Shown here one piece after another: positions 1,870 to 8,223 of a stretch of DNA of 8,481 nt. The DNA comes from Candidatus Heimdallarchaeota archaeon (GTDB taxonomy: Archaea > Asgardarchaeota > Heimdallarchaeia > JABLTI01), in contig JAUWKS010000099.1 in NCBI GenBank assembly GCA_030614005.1, forward strand, positions 1-8,481. Direction: 5' to 3'. Position 1 is the first letter of the stretch, and every line of letters begins with the position of its first letter. The notes beneath the pieces are model-generated. The model saw nothing but the letters and a program-made list of their open reading frames with translations, did no database searches and had not been told where the DNA came from. A program made the translations under genes and the position numbers.

Positions 1870-2265
1870 GTGCTAGAACTGAAAAAATCACAAGTTGAAG
1901 AAATTATTTTGAAGATTAAAAACAAAGCAGTAGGTGATGAGAAGGTTTTAGGTGTTATTGTCTATGGTTCGTTTCTTTCTGAGGATAATTTTCAAGATGT
2001 TGATGTAGCTTTAGCTTTTGAGTCATCCATGAATAAATCAGAAATGTTTTCCAAAAGAATAGAGTATTCCGGAGAATTTCATGATCTATTCGACTTTCAA
2101 GCACTGAATTTATTACCATTAGCAGTGCAAAAGAAAGTTCTAGCTGGAAAAGTTGTGTACGAAACTAGACAACTTTATGACATCGCTTATAACATAATTC
2201 GTGAGTATGAAGATTTTGAGAAATACAGGATTCAATACATAGAAGGTGTGATGCTTGAGGATTGA
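1870..2265 (+). CDS. mntA: Minimal nucleotidyltransferase (MNT) antitoxin of a HEPN-MNT toxin-antitoxin system
   Basis: GTG start, 131 aa, Pol-beta-type motif YGS-x8-DVD (1966-2004), a later acidic residue in LFDFQALN, directly upstream of and overlapping a HEPN gene. Confidence 0.9.
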   Translation: MLELKKSQVEEIILKIKNKAVGDEKVLGVIVYGSFLSEDNFQDVDVALAFESSMNKSEMFSKRIEYSGEFHDLFDFQALNLLPLAVQKKVLAGKVVYETRQLYDIAYNIIREYEDFEKYRIQYIEGVMLED

Positions 2266-2683
2266 TCTCTATATAGCAAAATTTGATCGAATAAAAGAAA
2301 ATATTCAACTAATTCAAGAGAATCTAACTGACAACCTTGAGGATTTTAAGAAACTTGGATTGGTCAAGGATGGTATATATAAGAGATATGAGTACAGTGT
2401 AGAGTTGATTATAGATGTAGTTGCAATGATTAATGCGGATTTGAAACTAGGAATACCAAATGGAACAATAGATGTATTAGAGCAATTACAGAAACAAGAA
2501 ATTTTGAATTCTAAAATGGTTGAAAAAATAAAAGGGATGAGAGGATTTAGAAATATTTTAGTTCATCGTTACGGAAGATTGGATGAAGAGTTAGCTTATG
2601 ATATTATTAAATCAAAATTATCCGATTTCGAAACATTAGAGAAAGAAATAATGGGTATCATTCGAAGAAAAATGAAAGAATGA
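2255..2683 (+). CDS. hepT: HEPN (DUF86/HepT-like) ribonuclease toxin
   Basis: TTG start overlapping the MNT gene by 11 nt, 142 aa, helical, N-terminal RYEYSVE and C-terminal R-x4-H motif RNILVHRY (2549-2572). Confidence 0.9.
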   Translation: MRIDLYIAKFDRIKENIQLIQENLTDNLEDFKKLGLVKDGIYKRYEYSVELIIDVVAMINADLKLGIPNGTIDVLEQLQKQEILNSKMVEKIKGMRGFRNILVHRYGRLDEELAYDIIKSKLSDFETLEKEIMGIIRRKMKE

Positions 2684-2799: not shown

Positions 2800-3783
2800 T
2801 TAATAGTCTATATCTATTCTTTTAGCATTCATAAGGATAAAAAGAGCATCTATAGTCACCCATTCATTCATCTTTTTCTTATTAACTGACTTCCAATCAG
2901 CTGGAGTAAAATAACTGGTTTCTGGATTGGAGGACTGACAATATTTTTCTTCCTTTGGAAATCCACCATCAACTAATCTTTTAGATTCTAGTAAATCAAG
3001 TGCATCATTACATCGGTAATCTTGAAGTTTGTTAGCTTCTGCTAAAACCTTAAGAGCAGAGAGAATGTCATAATGCCAATAAGCAGGATAATGAAGGGCC
3101 AACCATCTTTTGTTGATAACCTCACCATCACTAATTCGTTTGTAGAGATTCCTTTTATGAAATAGCTCTGCTGCTTTATCAATTGCGTTTAATAATTGTG
3201 GGGTTTTTTCTTCTCTTAAATAACGATTAAGAGCCCTCAAAGGTATGAGACTCTCGTGATAAGAAGACTTGTTTGCAGCAGGTTTTTTATCACAATTCCA
3301 ACCACCATCATTCCATTGATGTTGAATTAACCTATCAGCTAATAACTTGCATCTTTCATCGAAAAAACCCAGAGAAACAGCAGCATAAAGACCATTTCCT
3401 TCTTGAGAAGCACAGAAGCGTTGTCTACCTTTAATTAAGGGTTTAGATTTCCAGTGTTTAGGACTAAGTAACCAGTTCATCTCTCTGTTTATACTTGAAA
3501 TTAAATCTCTATCTCCTGGTGGATAGCCTATGTCTGCTAACTGTGCTAAAATCCAGTGAGCACCTTGCCATTTAGTATACACATGAAAAGTTTCACTAGT
3601 TTCATCCTTAGGTAAGTAAGAAAATAAGCTAGAAATTAGTGGTGATTCTTTCTTTAAATTGACTATTAGTTTTTTTACTTCTGAAGTATCATAATCGTGA
3701 TCTAAGAGATAAATATATGTTTTCAATCTAACTGCAGGCTCATCTGAATTCAGTAGTATTGATATGATTGATTTTTCGCTCAA
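2800..3783 (-). CDS. Prenyltransferase/squalene-cyclase repeat (alpha/alpha barrel) protein of unknown function
   Basis: TTG start, 327 aa, QW-like repeats QWNDGGWNC and KRLVDGGF, plus HYPAYWHYDIL and WVT segments recalled from this uncharacterised family. No DxDD cyclase motif. Confidence 0.7.
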   Translation of the reverse strand: MSEKSIISILLNSDEPAVRLKTYIYLLDHDYDTSEVKKLIVNLKKESPLISSLFSYLPKDETSETFHVYTKWQGAHWILAQLADIGYPPGDRDLISSINREMNWLLSPKHWKSKPLIKGRQRFCASQEGNGLYAAVSLGFFDERCKLLADRLIQHQWNDGGWNCDKKPAANKSSYHESLIPLRALNRYLREEKTPQLLNAIDKAAELFHKRNLYKRISDGEVINKRWLALHYPAYWHYDILSALKVLAEANKLQDYRCNDALDLLESKRLVDGGFPKEEKYCQSSNPETSYFTPADWKSVNKKKMNEWVTIDALFILMNAKRIDIDY

Positions 3784-3933: not shown

Positions 3934-4578
3934 ATGAGTGTAGTAAAATTAAAACAAAACTTTCTAGTTTTCTTTGTTTTAGCACTTATTAGTATCTCAC
4001 CTCATGAGATTCTTGCGGATGATAATATCGGAAAAGATTATGGAATAGACTCAATTAAACTGGAACCTGAAAACTTAGTTTCTGGAGAAAATTATACTTT
4101 AGCAATCCAATTTTTTGATCAAGCAGACATAAGTTTCTTAACCTTATTTATGTTTCAAATTTATCCTTCTTTCAAGAATGAAACTTCACCAATCAATATG
4201 GAAAATATACCAGGTTATATTCGATGTCCCAACTGTCCAAGATTTGGAGGAAATTTCACTGCAAATTATAATCAAGGAGCTACATTAGGATTTCAATTTC
4301 AAATCACTTATGACAATTTAACTTCCATAATGCTACCAGATTCGTTAAATGTAGTTATTCGAAACCCTCAGTTTTGCTCTGAATTCACAATAGAGAATTA
4401 TAAAAATGAAGATATGTTGTTGTTTGTTTTAGAAAGAATAGACGAAAGATTTTACACTATAGTTTTTACATTTTCAGTGATACTGGTATTGGTAATTTCA
4501 GCATCAATATATCTAAGTATAAAATTAACAGGAAAAAAGAAAAGAAAAAGTGTAAGAAAGATTAATCTTTCTTCTTAG
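3934..4578 (+). CDS. Secreted, single C-terminal TM-anchored hypothetical surface protein (P2), paralog of P1
   Basis: N-terminal signal-like segment, four sequons (NYT, NET, NFT, NLT), CPNC motif, C-terminal TM helix followed by GKKKRK. Aligns by eye with P1. Confidence 0.85.
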   Translation: MSVVKLKQNFLVFFVLALISISPHEILADDNIGKDYGIDSIKLEPENLVSGENYTLAIQFFDQADISFLTLFMFQIYPSFKNETSPINMENIPGYIRCPNCPRFGGNFTANYNQGATLGFQFQITYDNLTSIMLPDSLNVVIRNPQFCSEFTIENYKNEDMLLFVLERIDERFYTIVFTFSVILVLVISASIYLSIKLTGKKKRKSVRKINLSS

Positions 4579-6808
4579 CAATCTTTTCCATTACTTTAGG
4601 ATGTTTAACAACTTTCATGATAGCCCAAAGAAGGATACCAACTAAAACTGCAGCTAGAATAACAAGGAGGATTATCCAGATAGCAACATCGCCAACTGCG
4701 CTTTCATCAAGAAGTCCACCAATTAAACCATCAGCACCTACAGCTAGCATGAGTCCCATAAAGACTGAAGAAGTCAAGGACATTACAACAAGCAAAGTGT
4801 TAATACTTGGACCAGAGGTGTCTTTGAAAGGATCACCAACGGTATCACCAGTAATTGCTGCCTTGTGAGTTTCAGTGCCTTTACCACCAAGATTACCTTC
4901 TTCAATCCACTTTTTGGCATTGTCCCAAGCTCCACCAGAATTAGACATCATGATTGCGAAAACGAATCCTGATAGAATTGCTCCTGCTAGAAAAGCACCT
5001 AGAGCTGCAACACCAAATATGAGTCCAACAATAACAGGTATTGTGAATGATATTATACTGGGCAGAATAAGTTCCACTAAAGCTCCTTTTGTAGCGATAG
5101 CAATTGTCTTATTGAAGTCAGCAGGTTCTGTTCCTTTCAAGATGCCTGGATTTTCCTTAAATTGTCTTCTTATCTCAAGAACCATCTTGGCTGCGTTTTT
5201 CTGAACTGAGAGAATTAACAGAGCAGAGAATAATGCAGGAATAACTACACCAATAAATGCTCCAATAAGAATTTTAATATCTAATAAGTTCATAGTTACT
5301 ATTCCAGCTTCTTCAGCAAATGAGAATAGTAGAGCTAAAACTGTTAAGTTTGCAGAACCTATCGCAAAACCCTTTGTGATGGCTTTTGCTGTGTTGCCTG
5401 CTGCATCTAACATATCAGCTTTTCTAATAACATCTTCTCCAAGACCGCCTTGTTCAGCAATTGCGCGTGAATTGTCGACGATTGGACCAAATGCATCATT
5501 TGAAACAATTGTTCCAACTATAGAAAGCATACCAACAGCTGCTAAAGCAACACCAAAAACACCATCAAGCATGAATGATACTGCCATGGCAACAATTATA
5601 CCAAGAGCTGGAGGAACAACACTGATTAAACCATATGAAAAACCAGAAAGTATTGTTACTGCATGACCTTCTTCTGCTGCTAGAGCTATATTTTTTGTTG
5701 GTGGTTTGTCTTCTCTTGTAAAGTAATCACTTGTCCATCCTATCACAATTCCACTAGCAAGACCGATTAATATTGCGAAGTAATCTCGCCATAGCTGAGT
5801 TTTAGCAGATGGGATTTGTGCTGTAAGTATCCAAATTAATATTGCAGCAAAAGCAGCTACCATTAATGTTGCTAGATAAGTTCCTAAGTTTAGAGCCTTT
5901 CCGGGATTTTCTCTACCTAACCATTTAACGAGGAAAATACCAATTAACGAAGCAACTAAACCTACTCCTGCTATCAATATGGGTAGAATAACAAAGTAAA
6001 TTTCAAAGCCTAAAGCACCAAAGGTTGTACCCAGAATCATAGCTGCAACAATTGAAGCTACGTAAGAGTCGAGAAGATCAGATCCCATTCCTGCAATGTC
6101 TCCTACGTTATCACCGACGTTGTCAGCTATTGTTGCTGGATTTCGTATATCGTCCTCTGGAAGATTGTATTCTGCTTTACCAACTAGATCTGCTCCAACA
6201 TCAGCTGTTTTTGTGAAAATCCCTCCACCACATTTCATGAACAATGCAATTGTAGAAGCACCAAAACTGAAACCTAAAACTACTTTTGTAGCAAATGCTA
6301 GACCTACTAATGGTTCGAATATCCAGTAAATTCCTCCAACACCTAATAAGGCTACACCAACAACAGCTAAGCCCATTACTGAACCACCAAAGAAGGCTAT
6401 ATCAAACCCTTCCTTGACGCTTTTTGTTACTCCTTGTGCTGCTCTTGTGTTAGTCTTAACTCCTACAATCAAACCTAACCATCCAGCAAACATACTAGCA
6501 GCAGATCCTATCAGATAAGCTAATGCTTGTTCCCAATTTAGATCTCCAGCAATTACTGGAATTATGCCATCGGTCATCTCTGATGGTAAGAATAGTAATA
6601 TTACGAAAAACAGAAAACCAACAAATGCCGCTAGAACCAGATATTGGACCCAGAGGAAATGTTTAGCTCCTGTTTCAATATATCCGGATATTTCAATCAT
6701 CTTTTCGTTTCCACGATCTTTTTTCATCACCATTACTGTGAAATAAATCGCAGCTGCGATAGATATAATACCGGCTATAATAGCTATTAAAATAATAAGT
6801 GGTACCAT
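4562..6808 (-). CDS. hppA: Membrane-bound ion-translocating pyrophosphatase, K+-independent signature, atypical ion gate
   Basis: Diagnostic motifs GGGIFTKTADVGADLVGKAE, EDDIRNPATIADNVGDNVGD, DAFGPIVDN, GNTAKAITKG, GGAWDNAKK and GDTVGDPFKDTSGPS. 748 aa with many TM helices. Confidence 0.97.
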   Translation of the reverse strand: MVPLIILIAIIAGIISIAAAIYFTVMVMKKDRGNEKMIEISGYIETGAKHFLWVQYLVLAAFVGFLFFVILLFLPSEMTDGIIPVIAGDLNWEQALAYLIGSAASMFAGWLGLIVGVKTNTRAAQGVTKSVKEGFDIAFFGGSVMGLAVVGVALLGVGGIYWIFEPLVGLAFATKVVLGFSFGASTIALFMKCGGGIFTKTADVGADLVGKAEYNLPEDDIRNPATIADNVGDNVGDIAGMGSDLLDSYVASIVAAMILGTTFGALGFEIYFVILPILIAGVGLVASLIGIFLVKWLGRENPGKALNLGTYLATLMVAAFAAILIWILTAQIPSAKTQLWRDYFAILIGLASGIVIGWTSDYFTREDKPPTKNIALAAEEGHAVTILSGFSYGLISVVPPALGIIVAMAVSFMLDGVFGVALAAVGMLSIVGTIVSNDAFGPIVDNSRAIAEQGGLGEDVIRKADMLDAAGNTAKAITKGFAIGSANLTVLALLFSFAEEAGIVTMNLLDIKILIGAFIGVVIPALFSALLILSVQKNAAKMVLEIRRQFKENPGILKGTEPADFNKTIAIATKGALVELILPSIISFTIPVIVGLIFGVAALGAFLAGAILSGFVFAIMMSNSGGAWDNAKKWIEEGNLGGKGTETHKAAITGDTVGDPFKDTSGPSINTLLVVMSLTSSVFMGLMLAVGADGLIGGLLDESAVGDVAIWIILLVILAAVLVGILLWAIMKVVKHPKVMEKIAKKKD

Positions 6809-6921: not shown

Positions 6922-8223
6922 TTAAATTGTCCACTTTGATTGCTCTTCCTTTTTAGATTTACTTGTTCTGATATCTCTAGTAAGCAATATAATTGCTGTT
7001 ATCATAGCTGCTATTGCAAGTAAGAATAGGAACCCTATTCCCCAAATAATTGCTGTATTATCTAATATTAACCCGAAGATCCATGGAAACAGTGCAGCTA
7101 CGAGACTTGGGAAAGCAAAGAGTAAACTTATCCCTGTAGTCCTCGAACTTTGAGGAACATTTTCTGCTACATACTTGGTCCCTGCTGTAGCTGAAAAATA
7201 TAAGAAACCTATGAAAATAAAATAGAGTGTTATTATCCAGAAATTAGAGATTGTTGATCCTAATAAGAAGATGATTAGTAATATTACAGCAGATCCTCCC
7301 ATAGAAATTATCATTGTCAAGCTTGTTTTGAATTTATCACTAAAAATACCACCTAAAATTGCCGTTAGACCTCCAATTACAAGAAGAATAACAGTAATCC
7401 AACCCGCTTCAAAAATTGGAAAGCTATAGAGGTCAACGAAAATTATTGATAACCATTGAGTAGTGATTTTGAATATTCCTGATCTAAAAGCTGAGTAGAA
7501 TAAACAAGTTATTACGGCAAAAGATATGATAACAACTAAATCAGTTCTAAACCATTTTTTAACTTTATCAGTGCTATTCAAAGATTTACTCTCTTCATGT
7601 TTTTTGACTTCTTCCACTGTAAACCTATAATCTATCAATTTGTTCATGGCAAAGTACATTAGAACGCCTAATACAAGTCCAATGGCGCCAAAAATAATAA
7701 AGAATGTTCTCCATCCAACTAATCGGTCAAATGTTACAACTAAACCAGGAGTGATAGAAGTTCCAATCATCCCAAGTCCAGCGTTTAAAGCCATAGTTAA
7801 CCCTTTCTTGTCTTCATAAAGATCTGCAATTGCAGCATAAGCAACAGGATGATAAAATGATGCTCCTATTCCCACTGTTATAGCTGAAATTATTATCACA
7901 GTAACACCCCATCTTCCTTCTGGAGTATAAGCTGCTATGAATAGATGAACTGCCATGAGAACTATCCCAATGGGTATGAAAATTTTCTTGCTTTTTAGCC
8001 ATCTATCTCCTACTATGCCAACTGCTAGAGAGAACGCTGCAAAAACTAACATTTGCACCATACTTATCATACCTACCTGTCCAGCTGTGAGATTCATTTC
8101 TGATGGTAATCTAATAACCAGCATAGCAGCTGCCAGAACATATGCATAAAAATGATTTAAGAAATGACCAAATATTAGAACAACAAGAGCCAATATAGGG
8201 TTAGAGCTTTTGATTTCTGGCAT
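6922..8223 (-). CDS. Major facilitator superfamily transporter (FsR-like), substrate unknown
   Basis: 433 aa, about 12 hydrophobic helices, motif-A-like GIVGDRW and GGIFSDKF, TM1 HFLNHFY and GIGASFYHP resembling FsR-type MFS proteins. Confidence 0.92.
   Translation of the reverse strand: MPEIKSSNPILALVVLIFGHFLNHFYAYVLAAAMLVIRLPSEMNLTAGQVGMISMVQMLVFAAFSLAVGIVGDRWLKSKKIFIPIGIVLMAVHLFIAAYTPEGRWGVTVIIISAITVGIGASFYHPVAYAAIADLYEDKKGLTMALNAGLGMIGTSITPGLVVTFDRLVGWRTFFIIFGAIGLVLGVLMYFAMNKLIDYRFTVEEVKKHEESKSLNSTDKVKKWFRTDLVVIISFAVITCLFYSAFRSGIFKITTQWLSIIFVDLYSFPIFEAGWITVILLVIGGLTAILGGIFSDKFKTSLTMIISMGGSAVILLIIFLLGSTISNFWIITLYFIFIGFLYFSATAGTKYVAENVPQSSRTTGISLLFAFPSLVAALFPWIFGLILDNTAIIWGIGFLFLLAIAAMITAIILLTRDIRTSKSKKEEQSKWTI

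Follow-up and report, generated by a model that had tools for sequence, protein, structure and literature searches.

Can a membrane pyrophosphatase (mPPase) still work as an ion pump when the lysine on which current models of its gate rest has been replaced by valine? This question is raised by a gene in an 8,481-nucleotide stretch of DNA from a Candidatus Heimdallarchaeota archaeon (contig JAUWKS010000099.1 of assembly GCA_030614005.1), which is referred to as the window in the following, and which contains an intact open reading frame (ORF) of 748 codons, without internal stop, for an mPPase of 748 amino acids (Table 1). From the comparisons presented here we conclude, with moderate confidence, that the enzyme is a working K+-independent, pyrophosphate (PPi)-energised cation pump on a separate, deep mPPase branch with a lysine-free gate, and that H+ is its most likely ion. 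This branch is referred to as the KDx subfamily.

The coupling mechanism of mPPases and their choice between Na+ and H+ are still debated, and the current gate models (Li 2016, PMC5150537; Strauss 2024, PMC10897367) rest on Lys16.50, Glu6.53/6.57 and Ser5.43. According to Li 2016, Lys16.50 is part of a resting ion triplet with Asp6.50 and Glu6.53, from which it swings off to open the Na+ site in the Thermotoga maritima enzyme (TmPPase), while it neutralises the site in the Vigna radiata enzyme (VrPPase), and this motion was compared by the authors with that of the Arg which is essential in F- and P-type ATPases. Strauss 2024 attributed ion selectivity in "all currently known subclasses" to Lys16.50, Glu6.53/57 and Ser5.43. 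In the KDx branch the first of these gate elements is absent, the second is shortened and the third is kept, together with the signature of K+-independent enzymes, and the branch represents a natural test of models of mPPase gating and ion selection.

Residue numbers were placed by HMMER alignment to the V. radiata H+-PPase (4A01/6AFZ). Transmembrane helix 16 of the 748-aa mPPase reads KDTSGPSINTLLVVM, and the initial annotation of the window, which was made from the nucleotide sequence alone, had pointed out that this helix carries Val instead of Lys at 16.50, that Arg5.50 is Lys and that position 6.53 is Asp and not Glu, with Asp6.50 and the PPi/Mg-binding motifs intact. Indeed, these assignments held both at the codon level and in the alignment (Table 1). 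What had been overlooked were Lys12.46/Thr12.49, Thr16.47 and Arg/Lys11.60, which are linked markers, as well as an extra C-terminal helix and the origin of the gene from an Asgard archaeon. A register shift, which had been named as a possible source of error, cannot supply a basic residue at 16.50, since the segment between K662 (16.38) and K732 is free of Lys and Arg.

The canonical ionic gate, Asp6.50-Lys16.50-Glu6.53/6.57, is represented here by Asp6.50, Val16.50, Asp6.53 and Ala6.57, the last being Ala251, which is aligned by HMMER with E301 of the Vigna enzyme. With regard to the residues that distinguish the known enzyme classes (rule for K+-independence at 12.46/12.49: PMC10897367 and PMC5150537, with reference to Belogurov & Lahti 2002), Lys12.46 and Thr12.49 of K+-independent enzymes are present and their combination of Glu6.53, Lys16.50 and Arg5.50 is absent, and the combination of K+-dependent Na+-PPases, Ala12.46/Gly12.49 with Glu6.53, is replaced by Lys, Thr and Asp. 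Among representatives at 50% identity, the residues of the KDx signature occur as a set, which comprises Lys5.50, Asp6.53, Ala6.57, Lys12.46, Thr12.49, Asn16.46 and Thr16.47; the residue at 16.50 is small and non-basic in these proteins (Val, Cys, Thr, Ala or, in rare cases, Tyr), and that at 11.60 is usually Arg or Lys. At 5.50, each of the 24 subfamily rows of the representative set has Lys, as do 19 of 20 Asgard loci, whereas representatives from outside the subfamily have Arg in 88% of the cases and Lys in about 0%; among the representatives, Lys5.50 was found only in the KDx branch.

The remainder of the protein matches canonical mPPases. The PF03030 (H_PPase) profile, which describes family 3.A.10 of the Transporter Classification (TC 3.A.10), was matched over its entire length (752.4 bits, profile positions 1-645 of 645), and comparison with all solved mPPases gave E values of about 1e-126 to 1e-130, with VrPPase as the best match (E = 9e-130, collinear alignment). 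Sequence identities amount to 34-37% to the solved mPPases in a structure-based alignment and to 37-47% to canonical representatives in end-to-end sequence alignments. An AlphaFold2 model, which was built from an alignment of 60 sequences and which reached a mean predicted local distance difference test (pLDDT) value of 93.1 and a predicted TM-score (pTM) of 0.92, matches the 16-helix fold of the solved enzymes, with Foldseek TM-scores of 0.76-0.91 to the Tm, Vr and Pa mPPases and of at most 0.2 to all other folds.

In addition, the model contains the extra C-terminal helix, which is followed by a Lys-rich tail ending at 4565 (residues to 748) and which probably represents a 17th transmembrane helix, by which the C-terminus would be brought into the cytoplasm. 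This helix is limited to the nearest kin (P0001-P0021; 748-778 aa) and is missing from the paralog described below and from most of the subfamily.

For an estimate of how far the protein deviates from other mPPases, we considered the 89 alignment columns whose conservation reaches 90% or more in a set of about 139 representatives that do not belong to its branch. The 748-aa mPPase keeps 85 of them, and the four deviating columns comprise three in the 11.59-11.65 loop and position 16.50 itself; following Asp11.57, this loop reads DNSRAIAEQ here and DNAGGIAEM in canonical enzymes. All of the conserved charged columns are kept, namely K200, D203, D207, E218, D219, D229, D233, D237, D244, D438, D445, N472, K479, D629, K632, D655, D659, K662 and D663, and none of the conserved Asp, Lys or Asn residues that bind PPi and Mg2+ is missing from the hydrolytic centre or the coupling funnel.

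In principle, such a gate could be mimicked by a wrongly called or misassembled base in the codon for residue 16.50 or by a decaying pseudogene, but the probability of either is negligible in view of the intact ORF, the complete catalytic set and the recurrence of the motif. All of the 120 nearest clusters at 90% identity (68-94% identical to the 748-aa mPPase) carry Val16.50, Lys5.50, Asp6.53 and Lys12.46, and they originate from many samples, mostly from metagenome-assembled genomes (MAGs) of Heimdall-, Hod-, Thor-, Loki/Promethe- and Hermodarchaea, with one MAG of Zixibacteria; a recurrence of this extent is far beyond chance. Moreover, assembled contigs (not raw reads) of three independent studies span the codon, and none of the differences listed for them, to which 37 unlisted ones have to be added, falls on it, while those listed nearby sit at third codon positions and are synonymous. 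According to their labels, the runs with the sequence are metagenomes from cold seeps and marine sediments, and the only RNA run (X20) contained no more than a small share of the words of the sequence. One contig of X5 shows a joint that skips 1237 bases and has a short side at 90% likeness; we interpret it as conserved motifs of another organism and not as a deletion.

The source genome (3.6 Mb, 126 contigs, about 90% complete) encodes a second mPPase on another contig (C24:49984-52014, reverse strand), which comprises 718 aa, is 74% identical and has the same lysine-free gate. A canonical mPPase was not found in this roughly 90% complete genome, and both of its copies are of the lysine-free type, from which we conclude that this is the only membrane PPase type of the organism. 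The initial annotation had proposed that the changes do not reflect decay but mark a subfamily of its own, in which the gate differs, with altered ion specificity or weak coupling as possible functional consequences. Its main proposal, that of a subfamily, is borne out by the conservation of the motif, the paralog with the same gate and the intact catalytic residues, and also by the phylogeny.

The phylogenetic sample was restricted to the 150 representatives with the highest similarity to the query and is not a census of the family. In the FastTree phylogeny, the KDx proteins form one side of a branch (24 vs 105 rows, support 100), and the same split was recovered with IQ-TREE under the LG+C20 model with posterior mean site frequencies (PMSF) (19 vs 33 rows, branch length 0.37), with a Shimodaira-Hasegawa-like approximate likelihood ratio test (SH-aLRT) value of 100, and of 99 after masking of 19 signature columns. 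The opposite side comprises three groups. Two of them are the canonical K+-independent clade and a clade of archaeal proteins with Gln5.50/His16.46, and the third consists of the K+-dependent clades, which include enzymes with Glu6.53 (Na+-type) and with Glu6.57 (plant-type). The canonical K+-independent clade groups with the Gln5.50/His16.46 clade, apart from the 748-aa mPPase (SH-aLRT 100; 99 with masking). Midpoint rooting of the IQ-TREE tree, which is otherwise unrooted, falls within the KDx side. The KDx branch as a whole is deep, has many members and is subject to purifying selection.

The branch includes many Asgard families as well as some Clostridia, Paceibacterota and Zixibacteria; its members beyond the Asgard archaea comprise a 68-member cluster of Clostridia/Saccharofermentanales and one protein of Paceibacterota. 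An mPPase homologue is present in 336 of the 399 genomes of the source phylum, and the KDx gate was found in all of the 20 Asgard homologues that were sampled at 49-59% identity from several families, one of which retains Arg5.50. In five genomes, which represent four further families of this class (L023-L027), the query gave only weak matches, and their mPPases are either the canonical K+-independent enzyme or of the Gln5.50/His16.46 type. With 20 of the 25 Asgard loci that were read, the lysine-free type is the commonest, though not the sole, mPPase type among the Asgard genomes sampled, and it bears on reconstructions of energy metabolism in the closest archaeal relatives of eukaryotes.

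The 748-aa mPPase apparently lies outside every characterised mPPase subfamily, and the subfamily to which it belongs appears to be unstudied. The mPPase subfamilies were still counted as three in 2024 (PMC11593465), and the identities of 94.5% at 16.50 and 86.4% at 5.50 given by Holmes 2019 (PMC6882861, Table 3) imply exceptions, which were not discussed. The sole mention of an Asgard mPPase that we found is one line in PMC11210485, which, on the basis of sequence, describes the enzyme of Lokiarchaeum as an H+ pump that is insensitive to K+. Our full-text literature search, which did not cover Luoto 2011/2015 and the 2013 review in Microbiology and Molecular Biology Reviews, revealed no subfamily lacking Lys16.50, no study of an Asgard mPPase and no K16.50 mutants.

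If the enzyme were a member of the divergent Na+-regulated H+-PPases of Luoto 2015, such as those of Chlorobium limicola and Cellulomonas fimi, its gate would already be known and would be compatible with normal H+ pumping, an explanation to which we attach very little probability. Like the KDx enzymes, this group reportedly carries a Lys that confers K+ independence; however, it is said to be 23-34% identical to canonical mPPases and almost wholly bacterial. By these characteristics, the 748-aa mPPase is an unlikely member, as it is 34-47% identical to canonical enzymes end to end, as the KDx branch is mostly archaeal and as the protein scores above the cut-off of the mainstream NCBIfam model NF001960 (773.8 vs 546). 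Furthermore, reviews from 2022-2024 that cite Luoto 2015 keep Lys16.50 in the gate of all known subclasses (PMC10897367, PMC9408878). The Gln5.50/His16.46 type, which was also considered as a candidate for this divergent group, probably does not represent it either, given that its cluster names refer to Bathyarchaeota, Njordarchaeales and Fervidicoccus; in any case, its proteins keep Lys16.50. We found no discussion of the Gln5.50/His16.46 type itself.

Loss of Lys16.50 is not confined to the KDx branch. On the 129-row tree it occurred at least ten times, often together with the gate Glu, and in a test with 9 independent pairs, 5.6 pairs were in favour of an association between the loss of Lys16.50 and the loss of any Glu at 6.53/6.57 and 0.1 against it (sign test, median p 0.03), which fits the published view of both residues as an ion pair. 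For changes at 5.50 or at Thr16.47, there were too few events for any inference. The other mPPases without Lys16.50 (P0146, P0151, P0173, P0187, P0214, P0254, P0255 and P0263 among the representatives) are scattered and have Asn, Thr, Gln, Glu or Val at this position. They resemble the KDx enzymes in being otherwise intact and in often having lost the gate Glu as well, whereas they represent separate losses within K+-dependent or Gln5.50 clades and have Arg, Gln or Leu at 5.50. The combination of Lys5.50, Asp6.53, Thr16.47 and Lys12.46 is specific to the KDx branch. P0139, which belongs to a K+-dependent lineage, acquired Asp6.53, Thr16.47 and Thr16.50 convergently. Together, the co-loss and this convergence point to a co-adapted alternative gate.

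Among the closest known systems are the canonical K+-independent H+-PPases, i.e. the enzyme of Pyrobaculum aerophilum (PaPPase, PDB 8B37) and those of the Rhodospirillum rubrum and Streptomyces coelicolor type. The 748-aa mPPase agrees with them in Lys12.46/Thr12.49, in the presence of a carboxylate at 6.53, in Asn16.46 and Ser5.43, in the complete hydrolytic centre and in the fold (TM-score 0.82-0.91). It differs from them by Val for Lys16.50, Asp for Glu6.53, Lys for Arg5.50, Thr for Pro16.47 and the basic residue at 11.60. In VrPPase (PDB 4A01), the gate chain is R242-D294-K742-E301, to which K192, D244, V674 and A251 correspond here, with the second carboxylate located at 6.53. Given these similarities, the enzyme most likely works as the canonical K+-independent H+-PPases do, as a K+-independent pump.

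We propose that a canonical hydrolytic centre and coupling funnel are joined to a differently built mid-membrane gate. The ion pair of Lys16.50 with Glu6.53/6.57 is gone, with Val and Asp in its place, and Lys5.50, which replaces Arg, would be the sole remaining positive charge near the gate, where Thr16.47 may contribute a hydroxyl group. Asp6.50, Asp6.53, Ser6.54, Asn16.46, Thr16.47 and Ser5.43 could together form an all-oxygen cation site that is free of a competing lysine ammonium group. The transported cation, along with Lys5.50 paired to Asp6.50, would then offset the buried charge that is otherwise offset by Lys16.50, a role of the cation as charge balancer which would be the inverse of the case at 12.46, where lysine substitutes for K+. 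Gating would proceed by movements of helices 6, 12 and 16 and by a hydrophobic gate, without a swinging lysine, and H+ would be carried by the Asp6.50/Asp6.53 pair. The activity, the coupling, the ion and the charge-balance role of KDx enzymes, as well as the pairing of Lys5.50 with Asp6.50, are what we infer from sequence.

That the enzyme pumps at all appears quite probable, and H+ is most likely slightly favoured over Na+, which comes a close second; taken singly, H+ is plausible at somewhat less than an even chance, and Na+, alone or together with H+, at a lower one. The two A/V-type ATPase c-subunit genes of the source genome (L028:1134-1445; L029:1294-1695) both read IEAxAIYG at the ion-binding Glu, with no Ser/Thr following the carboxylate, which we take to be the pattern of H+-type c-rings and which is a weak hint at H+. 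The preference for H+ is mainly due to the fact that the characterised K+-independent mPPases all pump H+ (PMC10897367).

Several points weigh against a well-coupled proton pump. Lys16.50 is central to gating and selectivity in PMC5150537 and PMC10897367, and coupling might be poor in an enzyme that lacks it. On the published models, a gate without a blocking lysine would favour the binding of Na+ over that of H+. Finally, the source genome also encodes a soluble family I pyrophosphatase, which means that PPi disposal is independent of the 748-aa mPPase.

The second of these points leads to a tentative alternative, according to which the enzyme is a K+-independent Na+ or Na+/H+ pump that exports Na+ at the expense of PPi through a permanently open site formed by the oxygens of Asp6.50, Asp6.53, Ser6.54, Asn16.46 and Thr16.47. 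In published models, the Na+ site of H+-PPases is blocked or abolished by Lys16.50, which has to swing aside in Na+-PPases (PMC5150537, PMC10897367), Thr16.47, a marker of the subfamily, would add a further oxygen ligand, and the carboxylate is located at 6.53, as in Na+-PPases; the cold-seep and marine-sediment origin of the sequence-bearing runs is likewise in line with Na+ export. However, K+-independence is known only for H+ pumps (PMC10897367), and the characterised Na+-transporting mPPases are all K+-dependent and have Ala12.46 (PMC10897367, Table 1), whereas the residue here is Lys. In addition, Asp is shorter by one methylene group than the Na+-ligating Glu of TmPPase, and neither c subunit of the genome has the Ser/Thr that is typical of Na+-binding rings, although this is weak evidence. 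The 748-aa mPPase shares with TmPPase (PDB 4AV3/5LZQ) the fold, the catalytic residues and an acidic residue at 6.53 instead of 6.57, but differs in having Lys12.46/Thr12.49 for Ala/Gly, no Lys16.50 and Asp for Glu, and in the tree the main branch separates the two. Because Lys12.46/Thr12.49 replace Ala/Gly, the enzyme should not depend on K+, although automatic annotation assigns it to the K+-dependent Na+-PPases. With respect to the NF001960 match, only the name of the model, "sodium-translocating pyrophosphatase", fits a Na+-PPase, and the database label "K+-stimulated sodium pump" for KDx genes is at odds with Lys12.46 in the same proteins.

The alteration of both charged partners of the canonical gate could also mean that the enzyme is weakly coupled or uncoupled, i.e. 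that it hydrolyses or synthesises PPi with a leaky or non-pumping gate and serves PPi control or a PPi-gated cation conductance. We consider this unlikely, as the gate residues are strictly conserved throughout a deep branch and in both paralogs of the genome, which argues for selection on the gate itself, as the soluble PPase in the genome already serves plain hydrolysis and as many of the sampled Asgard genomes carry the lysine-free type only.

A further extension of these considerations, which we regard as rather doubtful, is that the KDx enzymes represent a fourth functional class of mPPases, K+-independent and transporting Na+ or Na+/H+ at a lysine-free, all-oxygen gate, or that they have preserved the ancestral gate, to which Lys16.50 was added later, if the root lies in or near the KDx branch; the latter variant is considered because midpoint rooting falls in the KDx side. 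If either were true, the "swinging lysine" would not be universal in mPPase coupling.

Table 1 Coordinates of the mPPase gene, its gate and signature residues and the neighbouring transporter gene in the window.
Feature	Position	Strand	Codon	Basis or remark
mPPase gene, Lys-free-gate (KDx) subfamily	4562..6808	(-)		ORF, PF03030, AlphaFold2 model
Additional C-terminal helix, residues 707-735	4604..4690	(-)		Sequence and AlphaFold2 helix, pLDDT 64-72
Val674 = 16.50 (canonical gate Lys)	4787..4789	(-)	GTT	Opposite Vigna K742
Asn670 (16.46) and Thr671 (16.47)	4796..4801	(-)		Thr16.47 instead of usual Ile/Pro; subfamily marker
Arg448 = 11.60 in DNSRAIAEQ	5465..5467	(-)	CGC	Basic residue here in most subfamily members
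Lys475 (12.46) to Thr478 (12.49), motif GNTAKAITKG	5375..5386	(-)		K+-independent signature
Ser248 = 6.54	6065..6067	(-)		Codon read
Asp247 = 6.53, in place of semi-conserved Glu	6068..6070	(-)	GAC	Codon read and alignment
Asp244 (6.50, kept) to Asp247 (6.53)	6068..6079	(-)		Asp244 opposite Vigna D294
Lys192 = 5.50 (canonical Arg)	6233..6235	(-)	AAA	Opposite Vigna R242
Ser185 = 5.43, conserved helix-5 gate serine, kept	6254..6256	(-)		Codon read and alignment
MFS_1 transporter gene	6922..8223	(-)		113 bp upstream of mPPase gene, co-directional

The mPPase gene and the MFS_1 transporter gene upstream of it constitute a conserved two-gene unit, which also occurs in relatives (L031:3545-4906) with a gap of 95 bp, an MFS protein that is 53% identical and an mPPase that is 77% identical; the two genes are possibly co-transcribed. 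Elsewhere in the window, a Polbeta/MNT nucleotidyltransferase gene (1870-2265, forward strand) overlaps a HepT-like RNase gene (2255-2683, forward strand), which corresponds to the layout of MNT-HepT toxin-antitoxin pairs. The ORFs at 890-1567 and 2800-3783 on the reverse strand and at 3934-4578 and 257-817 on the forward strand encode one protein with a metallo-beta-lactamase fold and three proteins (186-327 aa) without a Pfam match, and the ORF at 3934-4578 shares 17 bases with the 3' end of the mPPase gene, which lies on the other strand.

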